Source: Christensenella sp. UBA7571
GTDB taxonomy: Bacteria; Bacillota; Clostridia; Christensenellales; CAG-917
NCBI GenBank assembly: GCA_002476605.1
Contig: DLLD01000005.1
Coordinates: forward strand, 702 to 64,701
Direction of reading: 5' to 3'
DNA: 64,000 nt
Positions 16,889-62,799 of this stretch are shown in pieces. Under the pieces are notes generated by a model, which saw only the letters and a program-made list of their open reading frames with translations, ran no database searches and was not told the DNA's origin. Position numbers and translations under genes: made by a program. Within the stretch, counting starts at the first letter, position 1; each line of letters begins with the position of its first letter.

Positions 16889-17030
16889 AAACGGGTGCAA
16901 AATTAACTCAAAAAGTGCAAAAAAATGCGCAAAAATTATGTTAATTTCGGGGCTGAATTATGTCATTTTTGCAAACCAAAATATCATAAAAGAGTGCAAA
17001 ATATCATAATCCCGACATTTTATGTTTAAG

Positions 17031-17215
17031 GAGTGATATTGCGGCGTTGCCGCAGTGATATTCTCGCAAAGCGAGAGTGATATTTTTGGCTGTGCCAAAA
17101 GTGATATTCGCACGGTGTGCGAGTTGAGGAATATTCGATATGCGCCTTCGGCTGGATTGCCACGTCGCAACGTTCGTTACTCCTCGCAATGACAAAAGGA
17201 GAATTGGAAGATTTG
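17031..17215 (+). repeat. composite repeat A: four AGTGATATT/hairpin units + GGAATATTC cap + X hairpin module
   Basis: 9-mers start at 17032, 17054, 17076 and 17100. Hairpins are GCGGC-GTT-GCCGC, CTCGC-AAA-GCGAG, TTTGGC-TGT-GCCAAA and CGCAC-GGT-GTGCG. X module is at 17155-17193. Confidence 0.9.
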
Positions 17216-20968: not shown

Positions 20969-21462
20969 TAATATTGGGCATTGACCCCGGTCTTGCGACT
21001 ATGGGGTACGGGGTGATAAACGCCGTCAAAGGCAACTATTCCGTAATAGATTACGGCGCTGTCATCACGCCCAAAGATTGCACTTTGCCTCAACGCCTCA
21101 AACAACTTGAAGAGGGCGTGCAAGAGCTTATCGAGACGTTCAAACCCGACAATATCGCTATCGAGGAACTGTTCTTTTCAAAGAACGTCACCACGGGTAT
21201 TGCGGTGTCCGAGGCAAGAGGCGTGATTTTGCTCACGGCGATGAAGGGGCTCGGAGACGAGGTGTACGAATATACGCCAAACCAAATTAAGCAAGCGGTT
21301 ACGGGTTACGGCGGTGCGGACAAAATGCAAATGCAACATATGGTGCAAGCACTGTTGCGCTTAAAGAGCGTTCCGCGTCCCGACGACGCTGCGGACGCCC
21401 TTGCAGTCGCTATATGCCACGCTCAAACGAGCAGAATGACGACAAGTTTTAAGGTGCAGTAA
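20965..21462 (+). CDS. ruvC: crossover junction endodeoxyribonuclease RuvC
   Basis: MIILGIDPGLATMGYGVI... The start overlaps the upstream gene's stop as ATGA. Confidence 0.9.
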   Translation: MIILGIDPGLATMGYGVINAVKGNYSVIDYGAVITPKDCTLPQRLKQLEEGVQELIETFKPDNIAIEELFFSKNVTTGIAVSEARGVILLTAMKGLGDEVYEYTPNQIKQAVTGYGGADKMQMQHMVQALLRLKSVPRPDDAADALAVAICHAQTSRMTTSFKVQ

Positions 21463-21652
21463 GTTTTTGCGCCGAATGCGAGCAAAAGTCGTCGCTGTGG
21501 CAAAGACAACTCACAAGTTCATTGTCTACTGCCACGTTAGCCTTATTGCTCTACTAACCGAGCAACCGATACACGCTATCAGTATAGCAAGGATAAAAAC
21601 TCATACCACAGTTTCGCTATATCGATTGCTTGGTGTGTGCGGCTTGCGCCTA

Positions 21653-21827
21653 GATTCCCACGCTATCGCTCGGAATGACGAGAGGGTGGGACACCCACAC
21701 CCCGAACGGAATATTCCGCAACTCGCACGAAGTGCGAATATCACTTGCCGTTAGGCAAATATCACTCTCGCAAAGCGAGAATATCACTGCACCTATGGTG
21801 CAAATATCACTTGCGTGCTTGCACGCA
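21653..21827 (-). repeat. composite repeat B (inverted relative to A): X module, G-rich hairpin, GGAATATTCC, four AATATCACT/hairpin units
   Basis: X module is at 21653-21679 and GGAATATTCC at 21708-21717. 9-mers start at 21737, 21758, 21780 and 21803. There are five hairpins. The element ends 13 nt before the ruvA ATG. Confidence 0.9.
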
Positions 21828-21840
21828 ATAAAGGTGTAAA

Positions 21841-22425
21841 ATGTACAATTACATTCAAGGTAAAATAGTAGATAAGACGCTTTCCACGATAGTGGTGGAT
21901 AACAACGGCATCGGTTACGAAATCGGCGTGAGCGGAAATACGCTTATGGACGTCGATTTGGGTGAAATCGTCAAGATTTATACCTATCTTTACGTGAGAG
22001 AAGACGAGATGTCGCTTTACGGCTTTTCGCGCACGGACGAGAAAAGATTGTTTATGCGCCTTATCGAAATCAGCGGTATCGGTCCGAAGCTTGCAATGCA
22101 AATTCTCGGCGGTTACGACCTCAAAACGCTCACCGTGGCAATTGCAAGCGGTGACGTAAAGACGCTCACCAAAATCAAGGGACTCGGCAAAAAGACCGCG
22201 GAACTTATCGTGTTGAGCCTCCGTGAGCAAGTTGCGGACGATATAACCATATTCAACGACCACCAAGACGCACTTACGGGTGAAGACCTTGCGGACGTGG
22301 TGTTTGCGCTTGAAAGTCTCGGACTTTCCAAAACCGACGCGGTGCGTATGGCAACCGAGGCAAGCAAGAGAGTGCAAGGCACGGAAAATATTATCAGACA
22401 TTGCTTACAAAGTCTAAACAAATGA
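21841..22425 (+). CDS. ruvA: Holliday junction DNA helicase RuvA
   Basis: MYNYIQGKIVDK..., HhH motifs IEISGIGPKLA and IKGLGKKTAE. Confidence 0.92.
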   Translation: MYNYIQGKIVDKTLSTIVVDNNGIGYEIGVSGNTLMDVDLGEIVKIYTYLYVREDEMSLYGFSRTDEKRLFMRLIEISGIGPKLAMQILGGYDLKTLTVAIASGDVKTLTKIKGLGKKTAELIVLSLREQVADDITIFNDHQDALTGEDLADVVFALESLGLSKTDAVRMATEASKRVQGTENIIRHCLQSLNK

Positions 22426-22426
22426 A

Positions 22427-22634
22427 AATTAATAATTAATAATTATTAATTAATAATTGAGGGGGGGGGGACACCCGCACCCGAGCAAAAATAAATATGG
22501 AATATTCCACTTGTCATTCCGAGGGAACGAAGTGACCGTGGGAATCCAGCGTAGCGAAATGCGCCTTCGGCTTGATTGCCACGTCGCAACAATGTTGCTC
22601 CTCGCAATGACATATGGAGAAATGGAATATTCCA
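22427..22634. repeat. composite repeat C: AT-heptamer run, G10 hairpin, and a 138-bp unit bounded by ATGGAATATTCCA containing two inverted X modules
   Basis: (AATTAAT/AATTATT)n is at 22427-22458 and G10 at 22461-22470. The 13-mers are at 22497-22509 and 22622-22634. X modules are at 22513-22546 (inverted) and 22574-22611. Confidence 0.9.
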
Positions 22635-22676
22635 TAAATAAAATAACGTCGAAAAATAATACCTAAAAGGTTAAAA

Positions 22677-23717
22677 ATGATAAAATCGCAATTTACAAAA
22701 GAAAATCAAGACTTTGACGTCGACAATAGGGTGGTGAGTTCGCTCACTATCGACGAGGACGAGCAAGAAAACAGTCTCCGTCCCCACAGTATGACGGAAT
22801 ACGTCGGTCAAGAGAAGATAAAGAAAAATCTCGAAGTGTTTATCTCTGCCGCAAAAGCGAGAAACGACGCGCTCGACCACGTGTTGCTATACGGTCCTCC
22901 CGGTCTCGGTAAAACCACTCTTGCACACGTCATCGCAAGCGAACTCGGCTCGCAAATAAGAGTTACGAGCGGTCCCGCAATCGAAAAAGCGGCGGATCTT
23001 GCCGCACTTTTGACGAACCTTGAAAAAGGGGACGTGCTTTTCATCGACGAAATACACCGCCTCAACCGCAATATCGAAGAGGTGCTTTATCCCGCAATGG
23101 AAGACTTTTCGCTTGATTTGGTGACGGGGTCGGGTCCTATGGCAAGAAGCATAAGAATACCACTCAAACGCTTTACGCTTATCGGTGCGACTACGAGGGC
23201 GGGTATGCTTTCAAGTCCGTTGCGTGACCGTTTCGGTATGGCGTTGCGCCTTGAAATCTATTCCAACGACGAGCTTAAACAAATCGTTATGCGCTCGGCA
23301 AACATTTTGGGTATATCCATTGACGAGCAAGCGGCTCTCGAACTTGCCAAACGCTCGCGCGGAACTCCGCGTATCGCAAACAGACTTTTGAGACGCGTGC
23401 GCGACTTTGCGGAATACGAAAAACTTGACGGTATCAACCTCGATATCACCAAGAAAGCGTTGCGCCTTATGGACGTTGACGAGCTCGGTCTCGACGTCAC
23501 CGACCGCACGGTTATCGAGGCAATTATAGACAAATTCGGCGGTGGCCCGGTGGGACTCGATACACTCTCGGCGGCAACGGGTGAAGAAGCGTCTACGATC
23601 GAAGACGTGGTTGAACCTTTCCTCATTCAACTCGGTTTCATATCTCGTACACCGAGGGGAAGAGTGTGCACCAAAAACGCGTACGAACATCTCGGCAGAC
23701 CTTATACCGAAGCGTAA
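22677..23717 (+). CDS. ruvB: Holliday junction DNA helicase RuvB
   Basis: [17 protein letters not shown]. Confidence 0.95.
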
Positions 23718-23759
23718 AAGCACTTTATATATCAAAAAACAACGGATAAAACATCGATT

Positions 23760-24812
23760 ATGCAACAAAACCAAACTATATCGACCACTCTTACGACGCA
23801 CGATTTTTATTATCATTTGCCCGAAGAGTTGATTGCTCAAACGCCTATCGACCCTCGCGATCATTCGAGATTGCTCGTCTATAACAGAGAGACGGACACG
23901 ATTGAGCATAAACATTTTTACGACTTGCCGTCCTATCTCAAAAAGGGCGACTTGCTCGTTATCAACAACACGAGAGTTATTCCCGCGCGTATTTTCGGTC
24001 ATATCGAAAATCACGAAAGCGTGCTCGAAGTCTTGCTCTTAAAACGCAAAGACTACACGCATTGGGAAACCATTATGAAACCCGCCCGCAAGGCGCGCCT
24101 CGGCTCGGTTATACATTTTTGCGACGAGTTGAGCGCGGTCGTTACGGAAGTGGGGGACTACGGCGCACGCACCATCGAGTTTAAGTTCGAGGGTGTGTTC
24201 GAGGATATTCTCGACAGAGTGGGTAATATGCCTCTTCCGCCGTATATCAAGGAAAAACTTGCCGATAAGGAAAGATATCAAACCGTATACAGCAAGATAG
24301 AAGGCTCGGCGGCTGCACCCACCGCGGGACTGCATTTTACGCCCGAACTTATGCAAAAAGTGCGCGATATTGGCGTGGATTTTGCCGAAGCGCTTTTGCA
24401 TATAGGGCTCGGAACGTTCCGTCCCGTCAAAGAGGAGAATATCCTCGACCACGAGATGCACACCGAGTATTACGAAATCGACGAGGAAAACGCCGAGAAA
24501 ATCAACTCCGCAATCAGAGAGGGAAGGCGCGTTATTTGCGTAGGCACTACGAGTGTGCGCACGCTTGAAACCGTTGCGGACGAAAACGGCTACGTAAGAG
24601 CGCAAAAAGGCGATACGAGCATATTTATCTATCCCGGGTACAAATTTAAGTGCGTAAAGGGGCTTATCACCAACTTCCACTTGCCAGAAAGCACGTTGAT
24701 TATGCTCGTGTCTGCGTTCGTCGGCAGAGAAAAGACATTGGAAATATACAAAACGGCAGTCGACGAGAAATACAGATTTTTCTCGTTTGGCGACGCGTGT
24801 TTCTTTGAGTGA
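23760..24812 (+). CDS. queA: S-adenosylmethionine:tRNA ribosyltransferase-isomerase
   Basis: DFYYHLPEELIAQTPIDPRDHSRLLV... signature. Confidence 0.95.
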   Translation: MQQNQTISTTLTTHDFYYHLPEELIAQTPIDPRDHSRLLVYNRETDTIEHKHFYDLPSYLKKGDLLVINNTRVIPARIFGHIENHESVLEVLLLKRKDYTHWETIMKPARKARLGSVIHFCDELSAVVTEVGDYGARTIEFKFEGVFEDILDRVGNMPLPPYIKEKLADKERYQTVYSKIEGSAAAPTAGLHFTPELMQKVRDIGVDFAEALLHIGLGTFRPVKEENILDHEMHTEYYEIDEENAEKINSAIREGRRVICVGTTSVRTLETVADENGYVRAQKGDTSIFIYPGYKFKCVKGLITNFHLPESTLIMLVSAFVGREKTLEIYKTAVDEKYRFFSFGDACFFE

Positions 24813-25146
24813 GCGCACTTATTAACGGTATGTGCTTATTCGAGGTGTGGAGGCGCAAGGCGCCGACCGCATCGAGCGCCAAGCTTGACGGACAGTACAA
24901 GCGACTGCGCCGTGTTGTTGCGTAGCTGGCGCACAAAGCGCAGTGGCATAATGAGGGGATTGTCCCTATTATGCGCGTGCCGAGTGTGTCCCCCTGCGGA
25001 GCAGTTCCGTGGGTTCCCTCAAGCAGAGCGCAGAGGGGGAACGGAATAGGGGAAACACCGTGAGGAAGGGGGAAAGTTGCATTTTATAGTTGGTGGGAGA
25101 AATGCCGGCGTGTCCGGAAAGAGGGGGCATTGCATTAAAGATAACG
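24813..25146 (+). repeat. R1 interspersed element, copy 1 (candidate structured RNA)
   Basis: Begins at the nucleotide after the queA stop. Nearly identical to 53142-53485, related to 62310-62569, and its 5' half is inverted at 27167-27298. Confidence 0.9.
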
Positions 25147-25181
25147 AATACTCAATTGAAAATTGATGTCAACGATAATAA

Positions 25182-26300
<1,119 letters not shown>

Positions 26301-26366
26301 AATCGTCTTATAGACAAAAAATTGCTTAAATCGAATTTAATATTTGGACAAAATCGGTGATTTTTG

Positions 26367-26395
26367 TTGCAAATCTATCGTTCATCGTGTATGAT
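26367..26395 (+). promoter_or_regulatory. sigmaA-type promoter for yajC
   Basis: TTGCAA, 17 nt spacer, TATGAT. Confidence 0.5.
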
Positions 26396-26448
26396 TTAAG
26401 CACATAAATTCAATTATAAATCGCCTCTTTGGCGAATAAGGAGTAAAA

Positions 26449-26952
26449 ATGTTCGTTTCTACACTTGCGGCTTTGCCGGCTTGGTCTATGTACGTCATCA
26501 TCGGCGTTGTCTTCGTCGTAATGATCGTTCTCACGGTCGTTCCTCAAAAGAAACGTCAAAAAGAGCAACAAAATATGCTCAACAATCTTGCAGTCGGCAC
26601 GAAGCTTATGACGGTCGGCGGTATCGTCGGTAAAATCACCCAAGTGAACGCTGACAACACCCTCATCGTCAACGTCGGCACGGAAAACAATCCCACTCTC
26701 ATCGTTATCGACAAGAAAGCGGTCGGTTACGTTCTTGAAAAAGTCGACGCTCCCCAAGCTCCCGCAGCACCCGCAACGGAAGAGAAGAAGGAAGAAACCG
26801 TTGAGTGCGACAACAATTGTGACGCTTGCGACGCAAAAGCAGACTGCGACAAAGCAGAAAACTTCGAGCCCGCAACCGAAGCAACCGATTGTGACAACAA
26901 CTGCGATGCTTGCGATGCAAAAGCAGATTGCGACAAAGCTGATAAAGAATAA
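26449..26952 (+). CDS. yajC: preprotein translocase subunit YajC with a duplicated Cys-rich C-terminal extension
   Basis: One N-terminal TM segment plus the KKRQKEQQNMLNNLAVGTKLMTVGGIVGKI core. The extra tail carries two copies of CDNNCDACDAKADCDKA. Confidence 0.8.
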   Translation: MFVSTLAALPAWSMYVIIGVVFVVMIVLTVVPQKKRQKEQQNMLNNLAVGTKLMTVGGIVGKITQVNADNTLIVNVGTENNPTLIVIDKKAVGYVLEKVDAPQAPAAPATEEKKEETVECDNNCDACDAKADCDKAENFEPATEATDCDNNCDACDAKADCDKADKE

Positions 26953-26971
26953 TTTGATTTAACGCACAATA

Positions 26972-27002
26972 AAAAGCACTTGCGATTTGCAAGTGCTTTT
27001 TT
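26972..27002 (+). terminator. yajC terminator
   Basis: 12-bp stem AAAAGCACTTGC/GCAAGTGCTTTT followed by a T run. Confidence 0.8.
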
Positions 27003-27013
27003 ATGTTTTGAAT

Positions 27014-27166
27014 AGTGATATTTGCCTACGGCAAGTGTTATTCTCGCGTAGCGAGAGTGATATTTTTTGCTTGCGCAAAAAGTGATATTGCGCCGTAGGC
27101 GCAGTTGTGGAGAATTTGTATTCGCTACGCTGGATTCCCACGGTCACTTCGTTCCCTCGTTATGCC
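27014..27166 (+). repeat. composite repeat D: four AGTGATATT/hairpin units + cap + X-like module
   Basis: 9-mers start at 27014, 27034 (variant AGTGTTATT), 27056 and 27081. Hairpins are TGCC-TAC-GGCA, CTCGC-GTA-GCGAG, TTTTGC-TTGC-GCAAAA and GCGCC-GTA-GGCGC. The X-like module is at 27133-27166. Confidence 0.9.
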
Positions 27167-27298
27167 ACTGCGCTTTGTGCGCCAGCTACGCAACAACACG
27201 GCGCAGTCGCTTGTACTAATCGTCAAGCTCGGCACTTATCTGCTCGTCGCCTTGCGACTCGAAGCTTCGAATAAACACATTCCGTTAATAAGTGCGCT
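27167..27298 (-). repeat. R1 element, inverted 5' half copy
   Basis: The reverse complement matches R1 from GCGCACTTATTAACGG through GCGCAGTGGC. It joins directly to the X-like module of repeat D. Confidence 0.85.
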
Positions 27299-27348
27299 CC
27301 GAATTGGCACATATCGTGTATAAGTAGTCTTCGATTGAGTTTTCGTTT

Positions 27349-27399
27349 AGGTGTGGGCAAAGCCCACCCGCAATTATTAATTATTAATTATTAATTATT
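27349..27399 (-). repeat. G-rich hairpin + (AATTATT)x4 tandem heptamer at the 3' end of the membrane-protein gene
   Basis: GTGGGC-AAA-GCCCAC is at 27353-27367 and the heptamers at 27372-27399. The same module pair follows the ruvA stop at 22427-22485. Confidence 0.8.
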
Positions 27400-27799
27400 A
27401 GTTTTTCCTCTCACTTTTTCTGCCTTTTATATTTACGGTGATTATTCCGCTGATTGCGCCGGCAAGGGGGAGGGTGATGAGGTCTATCCAGCTAAATTTG
27501 ACGTCTTTGAAACCGTTGAGGGCGGAGAAAATCAAAAACGTGAGAAGCATATAGACAAGGCCACAAATCGCGCCTTTGAGCAAGCCGTTTTGCGCTTGCT
27601 TGAAGCCTATGAGCACTCCGACTAATACCGATACGATTTTGATTGCGATATTGACGGGCATAATGACTTTGTTTTCCACTGACGCAAAGCGTATGATAAC
27701 GGCAAAAATCAGCACCAAGCCGAGAGAGATAAGGGTTGCAAACAATACTGCTTTGAGGACGTCAACGACGTCGTTTTTGATGAGTTTTGCTTTTTCCAT
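27398..27799 (-). CDS. small 4-TM membrane protein (YrzE/TIGR04086-like?)
   Basis: 133 aa, four hydrophobic segments, positioned next to secDF. Family name is from memory only. Confidence 0.55.
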   Translation of the reverse strand: MEKAKLIKNDVVDVLKAVLFATLISLGLVLIFAVIIRFASVENKVIMPVNIAIKIVSVLVGVLIGFKQAQNGLLKGAICGLVYMLLTFLIFSALNGFKDVKFSWIDLITLPLAGAISGIITVNIKGRKSERKN

Positions 27800-27905
27800 A
27801 CCAAAAAATATGACGCGTCGCGTTGCGATATGATAGACAAGTGTCGTTTTTGGGGATAATTTTGCAAAAATACTGTTAAAAATTTATATAATCAAACGTA
27901 ATTTC

Positions 27906-27934
27906 TTGACTTAAACTATCTCATTGTTTATAAT
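27906..27934 (+). promoter_or_regulatory. sigmaA consensus promoter for secDF
   Basis: TTGACT, 17 nt spacer, TATAAT. Confidence 0.65.
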
Positions 27935-27966
27935 ACTTATGTTTTACTATATGGAGGAATATTCCT

Positions 27967-29328
27967 GTGAACAAAAAGAAATCGATAGTCGTCTTGTGCA
28001 TAGTGAGTATATTCATAATTCTTATGACAGTGTTTGCCGTCGTGGACTTTCCTATTGCAAACACCGTTTATGATTATACCGGCTATGTGAAGACAATCAA
28101 ACTCGGCCTCGATATGTCGGGCGGTGTGTCGGCAGTTTTCAACGTTGAAAACGACAACTACGGCGACCTCGACACTCGTATCAGTGGCACAGTAAGTTCT
28201 TTGCAAAGTTTGCTCGTATCCAAGGGCTATACGGAAGCAACCGTTACCAAGGGCACGAACAGCAACGGCGGAAACACAATCCGCGTTGAAATCCCCGACG
28301 TTGACGATCCCGAAAAAGTTCTCGAACTCATCGGCCGTCCGCAATCGTTGTATTTCACACTCGAAGACCTCGGTGACGAGGCTGCCGAGAGCGAGCTTTA
28401 CGAGAAAGCGTTCATAAGAGGACGCGAAGACCTCGAAAGTGCGTACGTGACGACCTCCGACAGCAGTACGAGCTACGCAATCGGACTCAAATTCAACGAA
28501 TCGGGTACGAAAAAGTTCTCTGATACCACGACGAATAACGTAGGCAAATCCACGTATATTTACGTCGGCGGAAGAAAGATAATGTCTCCGACGATCAACA
28601 GCGCGATCACCAACGGTCAAGCAATCATCACCGGCAACTACGATTATCAATCCGCTTACGACTTTGCAACTCAATTGCAATCGGGTACGTTCGGCGTTAC
28701 GCTTCAAATCTCGGAAGTGAGAAACATCTCCGCAACGCTCGGTGAGAACTCCATTAGAATCGCACTCATCGCGGGTGCAATCGGCGTGGCACTCATCTTC
28801 GTGTTTATGGCTGTGGTTTATCGCGGTCTCGGTCTTGCGGCTGACCTTTCGCTCTGCATCTACATCGTGCTCTTGCTTTGGTTCTGCGCAGTGTTGCCGT
28901 GGGTACAACTCACGCTCCCCGGTATCGCGGGTATCTTGCTCTCAATCGGTATGGCAGTCGACGCCAACGTAATTATCTTCGAGAGGGTGAAGGACGAATA
29001 CAAGCACTCTTCAAAGCCCATCGGCACTTGCATCAAGATCGGTTTCAAACGCTCCGCGGCTGCAATCATCGACGGTCAAGTTACGACGCTCATCGGCGCA
29101 ATCGTGCTTTGGATACTCGGCTCTTCCTCAATCGTCGGCTTCGCAGTGACGTTGTTCATAGGTATCGTGCTCTCACTCTTCGCATCGTTGGTGTGCACGA
29201 GACTTATCCTCAAAGCGTTTATCCCGCTCAACAGCACAAGCGAAAAGTTCTACGGACTTAAACGCGTCAAAGAAGAAGACGAAGCGGTCAATACCGTTTC
29301 TACACAAACTGCAAAGGAGGAGGCGTAA
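27967..29328 (+). CDS. secD: protein translocase subunit SecD
   Basis: GTG start after GGAGGA. Periplasmic domain plus six C-terminal TM segments (LDMSGG, IGMAVDANVIIFERVKDE). Confidence 0.9.
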   Translation: MNKKKSIVVLCIVSIFIILMTVFAVVDFPIANTVYDYTGYVKTIKLGLDMSGGVSAVFNVENDNYGDLDTRISGTVSSLQSLLVSKGYTEATVTKGTNSNGGNTIRVEIPDVDDPEKVLELIGRPQSLYFTLEDLGDEAAESELYEKAFIRGREDLESAYVTTSDSSTSYAIGLKFNESGTKKFSDTTTNNVGKSTYIYVGGRKIMSPTINSAITNGQAIITGNYDYQSAYDFATQLQSGTFGVTLQISEVRNISATLGENSIRIALIAGAIGVALIFVFMAVVYRGLGLAADLSLCIYIVLLLWFCAVLPWVQLTLPGIAGILLSIGMAVDANVIIFERVKDEYKHSSKPIGTCIKIGFKRSAAAIIDGQVTTLIGAIVLWILGSSSIVGFAVTLFIGIVLSLFASLVCTRLILKAFIPLNSTSEKFYGLKRVKEEDEAVNTVSTQTAKEEA

Positions 29329-40045: not shown

Positions 40046-40171
40046 CCTAAGCGCACTATTTAGCGAATAACTTCGTCAGAGCCACGCCTCGACAACTCAT
40101 TTACGTTTAGTAAATTAGGGTTGCCGAGATCGTGGCTCTTTCTTGTTCTTCATCTAAATAGTGCGCTTAGG
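40046..40171 (+). repeat. H-family long hairpin, copy 2
   Basis: 18-bp outer stem CCTAAGCGCACTATTTAG/CTAAATAGTGCGCTTAGG, AGAGCCACG/CGTGGCTCT stem, and the same internal loop sequences. Confidence 0.85.
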
Positions 40172-40266: not shown

Positions 40267-40393
40267 GGAATATTCCACAACTCGCACGAAGTGCGAATAT
40301 CACTGTGACAAAGTCACAATATCACTTTTTGCGTAAGCAAAAAATATCACTTGCCAAAGGCAAATATCACTGCGCCTACGGCGCGATATCACT
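40267..40393 (-). repeat. composite repeat E: GGAATATTCC cap + five AATATCACT/hairpin units
   Basis: Cap is at 40267-40276. 9-mers start at 40296, 40318, 40343, 40363 and 40385 (variant GATATCACT). Hairpins are CGCAC-GAA-GTGCG, GTGAC-AAA-GTCAC, TTTTGC-GTAA-GCAAAA, TGCC-AAA-GGCA and GCGCC-TAC-GGCGC. Confidence 0.9.
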
Positions 40394-40411
40394 TTTGATA
40401 TGTAGGAATAT

Positions 40412-52359: not shown

Positions 52360-52417
52360 GTGTCTATATAGGCATTATTGCATCACCAATCAAAACACAA
52401 TTTAGGAGAATATCATT

Positions 52418-52981
52418 ATGGCACAAATTATGGCAGGCGATTTGAGAAAGGGCGTTACCTTCCTTTACGACAACAAGATTATGACGGTCGTTGATTTCTT
52501 GCACGTCAAACCGGGCAAAGGCGCGGCTTTCGTCCGTATGAAAATGAAAAACGTCGTCACGGGCGCGGTTTTGGAACAAACCTTCAACCCCACCGAAAAG
52601 TTTGAACTTGCTCACATCGAGACCAAGACTATGGAATATCTTTACAACGACGGTGAGTTCTACTACTTTATGGACGCCGAGACGTACGAGCAAATTCCGC
52701 TCAACAAGAGCCAAGTCGAAGACGCTCTCAACTTCGTCAAAGAGAATATGAACGTCACGATGAAATTCTTCCAAGGCGCACCGTTCTCCGTTGAACCGCC
52801 AAACTTCGTCGAACTCCTCATCACGGTATGCGAACCCGCAGTTGCCGGCAACACCGCCACCAACGCAACCAAGCCCGCAACCGTCGAGACCGGTTACGAA
52901 CTTCAAGTTCCTATGTTCGTCAACGAGGGCGATACTATACGTATTGATACTCGTACCGGCGAATATATGTCCCGTGTATAA
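52418..52981 (+). CDS. efp: elongation factor P
   Basis: Typical 187-aa EF-P ([11 protein letters not shown]). Confidence 0.96.
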
Positions 52982-52983
52982 CA

Positions 52984-53097
52984 CTCTCAAATAGCGAATA
53001 ACTTTGTTAGCACCCATCCGCTACAAAATCACGTACGCTCGTGTACGTTGGGTTTTGTATCGGGTGGGTGCTTTCGCGTTCTTCATCTATTTGAGAG
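52984..53097 (+). repeat. H-family long hairpin, copy 3 (2 nt after efp stop)
   Basis: CTCTCAAATAG/CTATTTGAGAG and AGCACCCATCCG/CGGGTGGGTGCT stems (one G-U), apical ACGTAC-GCTCGT-GTACGT, and the conserved internal loop. Confidence 0.85.
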
Positions 53098-53141
53098 CGT
53101 TATATTTTTTAAGCGCATCAAACAGCGATATACTGTGTCAA

Positions 53142-53485
53142 GCGTACTTATTAACGGAATGTGCTTATTTGTAGCGTGGAGGCGCAAGGCGCCGACCGTA
53201 TCGAGCGCCAAGCTTGACGGACAGTACAAGCGACTGCGCCGTGTTGTTGCGTAGCTGGCGCACAAAGCGCAGTGGCATAATGAGGGAATTGTCCCTATCT
53301 ATGCGCGTGCCGAGTGTGTCCCCCCCCGCGGAGCAGTTCCGTGGGGTCCCTCAAGCAGAGCGCAGAGGGGGAACGGAATAGGGGAAACACCGTGAGGAAG
53401 GGGGAAAGTTGCATTTTATAGTTGGCGGGAGAATTGCCAGCGTGTCCGGAAAGAGGGAGTTATTGTATTAGGGGGAGTTACGACG
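53142..53485 (+). repeat. R1 interspersed element, copy 2
   Basis: Collinear with copy 1, differing by about a dozen substitutions/indels by eye. The 3' end (GTTATTGTATTAGGGGGAGTTACGACG) matches copy 3 instead. Confidence 0.9.
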
Positions 53486-53488
53486 AAA

Positions 53489-53517
53489 ACATATTTGTTC
53501 TGTTGTTTATACTTATT
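53489..53517 (+). promoter_or_regulatory. weak candidate sigmaE-type promoter for spoIIIA operon
   Basis: ACATATT, 13 nt spacer, ATACTTAT; a partial match to the remembered sigmaE consensus (kmATATT / CATACAnT). Confidence 0.25.
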
Positions 53518-61870: not shown

Positions 61871-61945
61871 GCGGGAGTGACTCAGTGGTAGAGTGTCACC
61901 TTGCCAAGGTGAAAGTCGCGGGTCCGAATCCCGTCTCCCGCTCCA
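61871..61945 (+). tRNA. tRNA-Gly (GCC), CCA encoded, unusual T-loop
   Basis: Hand-folded cloverleaf: acceptor GCGGGAG/CTCCCGC, anticodon loop TTGCCAA, T arm GCGGG-TCCGAAT-CCCGT (C instead of U at position 55). Confidence 0.8.
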
Positions 61946-62003
61946 AACGATAGTGCAGTGAAAAGAATTGAAGACGAAAACTTGAAAATGATGAAAATCA
62001 TAT

Positions 62004-62114
62004 AGACGGGATTCGGCTTCACGGAGTGAAGAGTGCAGTATGCACAGACCCGCGCGGGTTCGTTCCGCAAGGTCGCCATCGAAGATGGCTACACCGTCTC
62101 CCGCTCCAAACGAT
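62004..62114. pseudogene. scrambled tRNA-Gly 3'-half fragments (one inverted, one direct)
   Basis: AGACGGGATTCGG (62004-62016) is the reverse complement of tRNA nt 61924-61936. CCGTCTCCCGCTCCAAACGAT (62094-62114) duplicates 61931-61951. Confidence 0.7.
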
Positions 62115-62141
62115 TAGCGCATAGCAAAAATGCGCATATAC

Positions 62142-62215
62142 GGCATCATAGCCAAGAGGTAAGGCAAGGGTCTGCAAAATCCTCACCCCCAGTTCAAGTC
62201 TGGGTGATGCCTCCA
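62142..62215 (+). tRNA. tRNA-Cys (GCA), CCA encoded
   Basis: Acceptor GGCATCA/TGATGCC, anticodon loop CTGCAAA, T arm CCCAG-TTCAAGT-CTGGG. Confidence 0.88.
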
Positions 62216-62248
62216 AAAAACAAGCGACGGTATTGTCGCTTGTTTTTA
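62216..62248 (+). terminator. terminator after tRNA-Cys
   Basis: ACAAGCGAC-GGTATT-GTCGCTTGT followed by T5. Confidence 0.8.
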
Positions 62249-62249
62249 T

Positions 62250-62277
62250 TTACAAACTCAAAGCCTTGTGCTACAAT
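62250..62277 (+). promoter_or_regulatory. candidate promoter reading into R1 copy 3
   Basis: TTACAA, 16 nt spacer, TGC-TACAAT (extended -10). Confidence 0.4.
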
Positions 62278-62309
62278 AATTTTCGCTAAATGCGTAGTAA
62301 ACTTCTTTC

Positions 62310-62569
62310 GGAGAAGGAGCTTCGAGTCGCAAGGCGACGAGCGGTGGAGCGCCGAACTTGACGGATAGTACAAGTGAGCCAACGAGCGTTGTTCTTTTCG
62401 TTGGCGAACGAGTGGCATAATAAGAGGACGATACTCTTCTATGTGAGTGCCGATTGTCTCCCCCGCGAGCGATGTTCACTCTTGTAGAGAAATGCCCCTA
62501 ACCGAGTGGTGGGAGAAATGCCGGCGTGTCCGGAAAGAGGGGGTTATTCTATTTAGAGGAGTTACGACG
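62310..62569 (+). repeat. R1 interspersed element, copy 3 (diverged, shorter)
   Basis: Collinear with copies 1 and 2 but with many substitutions and a ~50-nt internal deletion. The 36-nt core at 62508-62543 is identical to 25092-25127. Confidence 0.85.
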
Positions 62570-62611
62570 CACATTAGTTGATGCGAAATTGAAATAATTA
62601 TTAAAATTTTT

Positions 62612-62636
62612 GCCGGAATGGCGGAATAGGCAGACG
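62612..62636 (+). pseudogene. duplicated 5' fragment of tRNA-Leu
   Basis: The 25 nt GCCGGAATGGCGGAATAGGCAGACG are identical to the first 25 nt of tRNA-Leu at 62713. Confidence 0.8.
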
Positions 62637-62712
62637 AATGAACGATGTTCATCCCGGCGTCTGCGCAAAGACCGTCACGCTCTATGTGAGAAAGGTGAGC
62701 AAAACTGAATAA

Positions 62713-62799
62713 GCCGGAATGGCGGAATAGGCAGACGCAAGGGACTTAAAATCCCTCGATGGAAACATCGTATCGGTTCGACCCCGATTTTCGGCACCA
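62713..62799 (+). tRNA. tRNA-Leu (UAA), CCA encoded
   Basis: Acceptor GCCGGAA/TTTCGGC, anticodon loop CTTAAAA, long variable arm CGATGGAAACATCGT, T arm ATCGG-TTCGACC-CCGAT. Confidence 0.9.

Follow-up and report, generated by a model that had tools for sequence, protein, structure and literature searches.

R1, a modular interspersed repeat with a conserved plus-strand fold in uncultured gut Clostridia

Main finding

R1 is an undescribed interspersed repeat of ~290 bases with a conserved plus-strand fold, and it occurs only in a narrow clade of uncultured gut Clostridia that form spores. The interpretation that we favour, by a modest degree, is that R1 is a modular, ~290-nt, non-autonomous mobile or recombining repeat that is selected as a folded plus-strand RNA. 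This RNA would probably act as a handle for a protein whose gene is located elsewhere in the genome, candidates being a transposon-type nuclease, a recombinase or a reverse transcriptase, rather than being the product of a cellular sRNA gene. We infer the mechanism, since the analysis yielded neither a partner protein nor terminal inverted repeats nor a target duplication.

The stretch of DNA analysed here (64 kb, hereafter the window) contains four R1 copies (Table 1). The initial annotation had drawn attention to the one that we term copy 3, as a diverged relative of copy 1 in which the letters had changed and the pairing had been kept, and its comparison of the two copies proved accurate. 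The hairpin GGCGC-AAG-GCGCC of copy 1 (24852-24864) is GTCGC-AAG-GCGAC in copy 3 (62326-62338), with the flanking tandem G.A/A.G mismatches retained (GA/GA) and the closing pair flipped from G-C (24849/24867) to C-G (62323/62341). The stem TGCGCC/GGCGCA (24906-24911/24928-24933) is swapped for the unrelated CCAACGA/TCGTTGG (62379-62385/62398-62404), which amounts to a helix of 8 bp (H4) once G62378-C62405 is counted, and the GTTGTT loop is retained. The inner stem AGGG/CCCT of the GCATAAT hairpin (24946-24974) has become AAGAG/CTCTT (62415-62444), copy 1 reading GCATAAT-G-AGGG...CCCT-ATTATGC where copy 3 reads GCATA-AT-AAGAG...CTCTT-C-TATGT. A core of 36 nt is identical between copy 1 (25092-25127) and copy 3 (62508-62543), a match seen in 0 of 100 shuffles, and outside this core the two copies agree at 67% of 249 aligned positions, the alignment having 84 gap columns (71% identity in the 5' domain).

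The compensatory changes do represent a real, strand-specific conserved fold, given that the same helices covary over ~35 copies, and the structure-aware alignment that had been proposed as a check, performed here with a covariance model on 35 copies, finds the pairings held by compensation. Evidence for the fold, with these ~45 further copies from related genomes, is consequently strong. The accompanying picture of an RNA gene in three copies has to be abandoned, since each genome probably contains this repeat 100 or more times.

Table 1 Positions of R1 copies, predicted helices of copy 3 and neighbouring features in the window
Feature	Positions	Strand	Description
R1 copy 1	24812-25153	+	L+S hybrid in queA-tgt spacer; without GGAGTTACGAC tail
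R1 copy 2	53141-53506	+	L+S hybrid in efp-spoIIIAA spacer; 4 mismatches in core
R1 copy 3	62296-62590	+	Common short 'S' form; covariance-model match 62301-62590
R1 copy 4	26934-27293	-	Missed by the initial annotation; covariance-model match, 99 bits, E=1e-25
36-nt core of copy 3	62508-62543	+	Same letters as copy 1 25092-25127; holds hairpin H6
H1	62323-62341	+	C-GA-GUCGC-AAG-GCGAC-GA-G, tandem G.A/A.G; 5/6 pairs compensatory, 98% of cells paired
H2	62342-62351	+	Short 2-bp hairpin CG-GUGGAG-CG; second pair G-C, G-U or A-U across copies
H3	62356-62375	+	ACUUG-loop-CAAGU
H4	62378-62405	+	8-bp variable stem GCCAACGA/UCGUUGGC; 8/8 pairs covary (35-copy alignment)
H5	62415-62444	+	Two-part GCAUA..AAGAG-GACGAUA-CUCUU.UAUGU; 86% paired, G-U pairs numerous
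P-alpha	62457-62516	+	Long-range helix; UCUCCCCCGC (62457-62466) with GUGG(U)GGGAGA (62506-62516); 98% paired
Hv	62479-62489	+	Weak variable hairpin, enclosed by P-alpha
P-beta	62490-62548	+	Probable pseudoknot; AAAUGCCCC (62490-62498) with GGGGGUUAUU (62539-62548)
H6	62521-62533	+	CCGG-CGUGU-CCGG within 36-nt core
tRNA-Cys gene	62142-62215		Hairpin and T-run 62220-62247
Sigma-70-type promoter	62249-62277	+	TTTACA-17-TGCTACAAT ((TG)TACAAT); 10/12 matches
tRNA-Leu(UAA)	62713-62799	+	Leader holds R1 copy 3; terminator-like hairpin 62799-62829

Copies, searches and host range

A covariance model built from the R1 copies of other genomes matches copy 3 with 324 bits (E=3e-88, 62301-62590). Copy 3 is shortened at its 5' end, where it begins at ~62295 (GCGTAGTAAAC...), and carries the conserved tail GGAGTTACGAC at 62558-62568. 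Copies 1 and 2 are 95% identical to one another. In copy 4 the 5' domain (H1-H5) is intact, the 3' module having been deleted or replaced by another repeat, and the segment 27034-27080 matches 17054-17100.

Searching one genome per species for the exact core returned 20 loci, 4 of them at contig ends, in four assemblies of uncultured Clostridia: UMGS1366, a Hadza-derived MAG (CAKQUV), a MAG labelled Butyrivibrio crossotus (CAVANK) and Christensenella sp. UBA767. A metagenome scan in which the core hairpin was left free yielded 15 more true copies, and the hairpin was the same in all of them. Using a covariance model of R1 built from 17 short copies, we obtained 49 matches in 319 kb, including copy 4 of the window and second copies in many of the 8-kb loci (fetched loci are numbered with the prefix L below). 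DNA that was fetched through the xseB protein, and thus independently of R1, holds 2-3 copies per 20 kb. R1 occurs roughly once per 10-20 kb, the window having 4 copies in 64 kb, and a genome of 2-3 Mb would, by extrapolation from this density, hold ~100-300 copies.

Most copies were recovered by the exact-core pattern, such that the core identity among them is partly ascertainment and its invariance partly an artefact of searching by the exact core; in copies found by the model in flanking DNA the core is often mutated or missing (copies 2 and 4, L016b and the long copy of L046). The contrast between copies 1 and 3, which are 100% identical in the core and 67% elsewhere, stays striking despite this ascertainment.

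At the gathering thresholds of Rfam 15, no family overlaps R1, and searches of copy 3, copy 1 and L013 at E<=10 returned only noise far below threshold (mir-23c, PutA thermometer, snoR28). We found no match between R1 and the Rfam models for HEARO, IS605-orfB-I/II, group I/II introns, T-box, riboswitches or Gut-1, nor any R1 match in phage records, plasmid records or viral contigs, and a full-text literature search for the core sequence retrieved no paper that contains it. R1 has stops in all six frames, and its longest open peptide, compared with 5.8 billion proteins, matched only six short spurious ORFs (46-80 aa); therefore, no real protein overlaps R1.

Modular build

R1 combines a shared 5' domain with two alternative 3' modules, and one of its hairpins can carry an insert at the tip. 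The 5' side comprises 1-3 tandem units of ~31 nt (ACTTATTAACGGAATGTGCTTATTCGGAG), of which copy 3 has a shortened version, and this variable unit number renders the left end of the repeat ambiguous. The insert, which lies in the loop of H3 in six copies, is structured, 80-170 nt in length and was seen nowhere except inside R1. At the 3' side, module S is made up of P-alpha, the 36-nt core and P-beta, and module L is G-rich (...GGGGGAACGGAAUAGGGGAAACACCGUGAGGAAGGGGGAAAG...) and 95% conserved between genomes. The S and L modules are found singly or together, and modules thus recur in varied combinations and copy numbers, as is characteristic of mosaic repeats.

This architecture alters the reading of one feature of copy 3. 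A G-rich middle stretch had been described as missing from it, and the absence is correct, whereas its interpretation as a loss is not: the family norm is the short form, to which copy 3 belongs, and copies 1 and 2, with their G-rich stretch, are unusual hybrids. In L046 and L016b, module L continues directly into the common tail UUGCAUUUAGAKGAGUUACGAC with no core, L elsewhere taking the place of the 36-nt core, whereas in copies 1 and 2 of the window L is followed by the S core. The 'missing middle' is therefore an extra module of the hybrids, and copy 3 has suffered no deletion.

Predicted fold and covariation

RNAalifold applied to MAFFT alignments gave a poor consensus, because alternative H4 types misalign, and linkage within subtypes overwhelmed a naive all-against-all covariation scan. 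The structure was consequently built by hand from alignments and the copies were then realigned with a covariance model. In the resulting alignment of 35 copies, which is fitted to the model and hence biased towards it, standard pairs occupy 93.1% of pair cells, compared with 34-49% in slid controls in which the 3' partners were moved by 1-3 columns; 22 of the 49 pairs show compensatory change on both sides, and the observed covariation score was matched by none of 500 shuffles. In a MAFFT alignment made independently of structure, 5 of the 8 pairs of H4 show changes on both sides and 99% of cells are paired. From the MAFFT result and the slid controls, we argue that the covariation signal is real. 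R1 thus has the property expected of structured RNAs in general, namely compensatory substitutions in excess of both shuffled and slid-partner controls.

Within the helices, G-U/U-G cells outnumber A-C/C-A cells by 134 to 35, and it is therefore the plus strand that folds, as RNA or as single-stranded DNA. Loop sequences are also conserved (GUGUUGUU, GACGAUA and AGUA), and hairpin tips vary in length; the first of these is the loop of H4, with the family form G(Y)GUUGUU, and the family form of H3 is RCUUG...CAAGY. P-alpha, the 3' strand of which reads GUGG(Y)GGGAGA across the family, and H6 are nearly invariant and therefore uninformative for covariation, although a natural P-alpha variant, GGGGUGAG (L006b, L045), retains 10 pairs with its bulged U moved. 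P-beta (AAWUGYCCC with GGGGG-Y-N-AUU) is 89-96% paired and displays only one-sided changes, from G-U to G-C; the pseudoknot that it would form is plausible. One further candidate, an end-joining helix or inverted repeat between 5' AUUC-GGAG and 3' CUCU..GAAU, appeared promising on 17 copies and was rejected because it performed no better than shuffles on 35.

Copy 3 and the tRNA-Leu(UAA) leader

The tRNA-Cys gene, its hairpin and T-run, and a promoter-like site are all present upstream of copy 3, as the initial annotation had noted. Its additional proposals, that the extended -10 promoter is copy 3's own and that copy 3 could be an independent transcription unit, fail on comparison with relatives. 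We used the exact xseB protein to reach 6-7 related genomes that span the region from ispA through the tRNAs to an EAL gene, and the TTTACA-17-TACAAT promoter is kept in all of them. R1 lies between this promoter and tRNA-Leu in the window/L056, L054 and L057, and is absent in L055, L053 and L058; in L055 and L058 the promoter stands 30-45 nt upstream of tRNA-Leu(UAA), and L053 retains it together with a separate 100-nt indel. Because the promoter exists in relatives that have no R1, it is the tRNA-Leu promoter, and copy 3, situated between that promoter and the tRNA-Leu gene, is an insertion into a tRNA leader.

Presence and absence at orthologous sites is a general mark of mobile repeats, and at the tRNA-Leu leader three genome types have R1 and three do not. 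Comparison of a filled with an empty site (L054 vs L055) reveals no target duplication beyond 0-1 nt and no inverted termini. The three orthologous copies in this leader have a common right junction and differ in their H1 and H4 types, which points to exchange between copies. We found no terminator-like site between copy 3 and tRNA-Leu, and one precursor transcript is thus the simplest explanation; copy 3 would be co-transcribed with tRNA-Leu, and cleavage by RNase P at the 5' end of the tRNA would release a leader containing R1.

The locus has other rearrangements. Positions 62613-62637 repeat the first 25 nt of tRNA-Leu (GCCGGAATGGCGGAATAGGCAGACG), followed by a 75-nt segment and then the intact tRNA-Leu at 62713. 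This 100-nt indel (62613-62712) is independent of R1, being present in the window/L056/L064, diverged in L053/L059/L061 and absent in L054, L055, L057 and L058, and a second promoter-like site (62578-62607) lies just 5' of it. The tRNA-Gly/tRNA-Cys pair (61871-62215 in the window) is inverted in four of six relatives (L053/L054/L057/L058 5089-5430), irrespective of R1.

Genomic neighbourhood and turnover

The genes flanking R1 copies are unrelated housekeeping genes, and their strands relative to R1 (upstream/downstream) are same/same in 9 cases, opposite/opposite in 7, same/opposite in 8 and opposite/same in 3. These mixed orientations and unrelated genes rule out a role as a 5' leader. An apparent co-orientation with the upstream gene (15 of 18 in an early count) disappeared with more loci and stricter ORF calls. 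A sigma-70-like match occurs upstream of 7 of 28 family copies, at scattered positions and with none conserved, and R1 lacks the promoter and terminator of its own, at a conserved position, that would be expected of an independent sRNA gene.

Beside ~45 copies, in ~700 kb of fetched loci plus the window, we detected no transposase, TnpA, TnpB, IscB, reverse transcriptase or other recurrent gene; within the window, judging by the starts of ORFs, there is no transposase-like protein and the genes look like housekeeping genes. Nor were the terminal inverted repeats and target-site duplications of DDE-type MITEs found in R1. The 5' flank mostly ends in YAC, and H1 and H6 are not alike.

Turnover is evident between close relatives. 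Over 21009-28642 CAVANK and the window share 94-96% identity, and the queA-tgt spacer of CAVANK contains an R1 of 460 nt that belongs to another subtype and lies on the opposite strand. A full-length ortholog of copy 4 exists in CAVANK and in L006 (1351-1650), and the window's copy 4 has therefore decayed; decayed or truncated copies thus exist (copy 4, L016b). The efp-spoIIIAA spacer of relatives holds plus-strand long forms, a tandem pair, or minus-strand short or insert-bearing forms, and that of CAVANK holds a different R1 subtype on the opposite strand. These comparisons show that R1 is gained, lost, flipped in orientation and module-swapped between ~95%-identical genomes. For a full-length copy there was no clean empty site among the spacers compared, those of L012/L037 being wholly different and the queA-tgt and efp spacers holding other subtypes. 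Some orthologous copies are retained at ~90% identity (L017/L041, L019/L035), and L005/L026 form a further orthologous pair; the retention in the former two pairs fits a host function as well as old insertions.

Comparison with known systems and alternative explanations

By analogy, R1 appears to behave most like the mosaic repeats BOX, BIME and ERIC, and to resemble orphan RNAs of the HEARO/omega type in size and architecture. BOX (Streptococcus pneumoniae), BIME/REP and ERIC (enterobacteria) are mosaic intergenic repeats, and as generally described they share with R1 a high copy number, intergenic location, variable sub-unit numbers, stable predicted RNA folds, non-coding character and presence or absence among strains. 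R1 differs from BOX and BIME in being larger (~290-460 nt), in combining six or more covarying helices with conserved loops and a probable pseudoknot, and in that its best-conserved part is internal rather than terminal and no terminal inverted repeats were found. The bcr1-type repeats of the Bacillus cereus group offer a Firmicute parallel in which RNA secondary structure is reported to be kept by compensatory changes; these are shorter than R1 and possess MITE-like ends and a target duplication, whereas R1 differs in sequence and showed neither feature. HEARO (RF02033), the omega-RNA of IscB and the reRNA of TnpB are comparable to R1 in length (~300 nt) and in the probable pseudoknot. HEARO can occur in many copies per genome, at times without an ORF, and the mobile element to which it belongs has no inverted repeats and makes no target duplications. 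However, R1 matches neither HEARO nor IS605-orfB in sequence or structure, adjoins no IscB, TnpB or TnpA gene, and its ends are not defined in the fashion of IS200/IS605.

These likenesses suggest alternative explanations for R1. If it were a BIME/BOX/REP-like mosaic repeat acting at the level of DNA or mRNA ends (termination, mRNA stabilisation or protein binding sites), its hairpins would be local palindromes with no global RNA function. This would suit the modular build, with its tandem 31-nt units, optional insert and alternative 3' modules, the location in intergenic spacers alongside other repeat families (the R3 palindrome, Gut-1 and R2) and the excess of convergent over divergent gene spacers (8 vs 3). 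We nevertheless consider it unlikely, given that the G-U to A-C ratio of ~4 to 1 indicates constraint on a single strand rather than on a duplex palindrome, that loop sequences and a long-range helix are conserved, that no U-tract terminator follows R1 and that copies occur in both orientations relative to their neighbours. Alternatively, R1 might be a non-autonomous IS200/IS605-type element (PATE) with an OMEGA-type guide-RNA scaffold, like HEARO/IscB omega-RNA or TnpB reRNA, in which case a TnpB/IscB-like nuclease produced elsewhere would be bound by the 3' module with its pseudoknot, and the DNA next to the element would be the guide. A structured, probably pseudoknotted, strand-specific fold of ~300 nt in multiple copies with no adjacent ORF, the abrupt end of conservation after GGAGUUACGAC and the variable sequence beyond it, the lack of inverted terminal repeats and target duplication, and the usual YAC at the end of the 5' flank are all in keeping with such an element. 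Against it, neither HEARO, an IS605-orfB motif nor any other Rfam family matches even at E<=10, genes for TnpA, TnpB or IscB are absent next to all the copies and within the window, R1 is overlapped by no protein C-terminus and lacks paired hairpins at its left and right ends, and a further 15 nt past the supposed end are common to about half of the copies; we therefore regard it as quite unlikely.

On another reading, copy 3 would be transcribed separately as a small RNA, from an extended -10 promoter of its own, and would belong to a small family of trans-acting sRNA genes. This reading draws on the strong promoter-like site ~20 nt upstream, the well-supported fold and the retention of some R1 copies at orthologous sites. 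It is decidedly improbable in view of the identical promoter that R1-free relatives have at 30-45 nt upstream of their tRNA-Leu, the absence of a terminator between R1 and tRNA-Leu, and the lack of an upstream sigma-70-like site in 21 of 28 copies and of any such site at a conserved position; so high a density of copies, the decay of some of them and their flips of orientation are likewise atypical of an sRNA gene family. More remote still is a cis-regulatory leader, riboswitch- or T-box-like, for the downstream gene. Copy 1 does lie 45 nt upstream of tgt and copy 3 upstream of tRNA-Leu, but the genes downstream of R1 have no relation to one another and are split about equally between its own strand and the opposite one, no expression platform (a terminator or SD-sequestering helix) is present, and relatives have no R1, or an inverted R1, at the same genes. 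A leader role is thus contradicted by the context data, and we hold it to be very improbable indeed.

A more specific proposition is that gut Clostridia harbour an RNA-dependent mobile system, not yet described, and that R1 is its RNA. The system would be of either a guide/scaffold or a SINE-like kind, and we consider this proposition possible, if on the unlikely side. In the guide/scaffold version the RNA would serve a nuclease or recombinase whose gene lies elsewhere in the genome, and in the SINE-like version R1 would be a bacterial retroelement copied via its conserved 3' module; the invariant pseudoknotted core would then be the protein handle. HEARO looked alike before IscB was understood.

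Other repeats and features of the window

Several distinct repeat families crowd the spacers of this genome. Gut-1 (RF01706), which to our knowledge is known only from gut metagenomes, scores above its gathering threshold at 21733-21812 (-) and 40314-40394 (-) in the window and at L063 15645-15723 (-). An orphan structured RNA motif from human-gut metagenomes, it is dispersed like R1 in the spacers of the same genomes, but it has a length of 77 nt, bears no relation to R1 in sequence or structure, and its model misses R1. R3, a palindromic repeat of ~110 nt (AATAGCGAATAAC followed by a long hairpin), occurs at 52990-53104 and also at 40061-40095; it lies 50-140 nt upstream of many R1 copies (L010, L019, L020, L002, L047, L051, L059), and in L046 (17111-17681) three units of it stand in tandem, with a period of 239 nt. 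R3 and R1 may be parts of a larger composite element. A repeat family of ~200 nt (D5, D7, D8) is present at 17005-17213, 22555-22631 and 27034-27080, and also in L009, L027 and L043.

At 52364-53017 the longest ORF is on the minus strand (217 aa); the plus-strand ORF at 52418-52981 is annotated as elongation factor P in relatives (Pfam EFP domains), and the minus-strand ORF is therefore probably spurious. About 2.4 kb past the 3' end of the window there is a 117-aa PF05635 protein (L064 15600-15953, L065 15357-15710), with the fold of the 23S rRNA-intervening-sequence protein. The PF05635 fold is also that of Avd proteins in diversity-generating retroelements.

Implications

It is rare for a bacterial genome to repeat, about every 10-20 kb, a 290-nt fold that has conserved loops, a probable pseudoknot and six or more covarying helices; this fold is also absent from Rfam 15. 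R1 accounts for assembly breaks at certain points in these gut genomes, and for the strong differences between the spacers of 95%-identical strains. The tRNA-Leu locus, where relatives with and without the insert share one promoter, is a natural test bed for the effect of a structured leader on tRNA maturation. HEARO and the IS605-orfB motifs were likewise orphan multi-copy RNAs, later proven to be guide RNAs of transposon nucleases; given that orphan RNAs of similar type have turned out this way, R1 provides a concrete lead to a partner protein.
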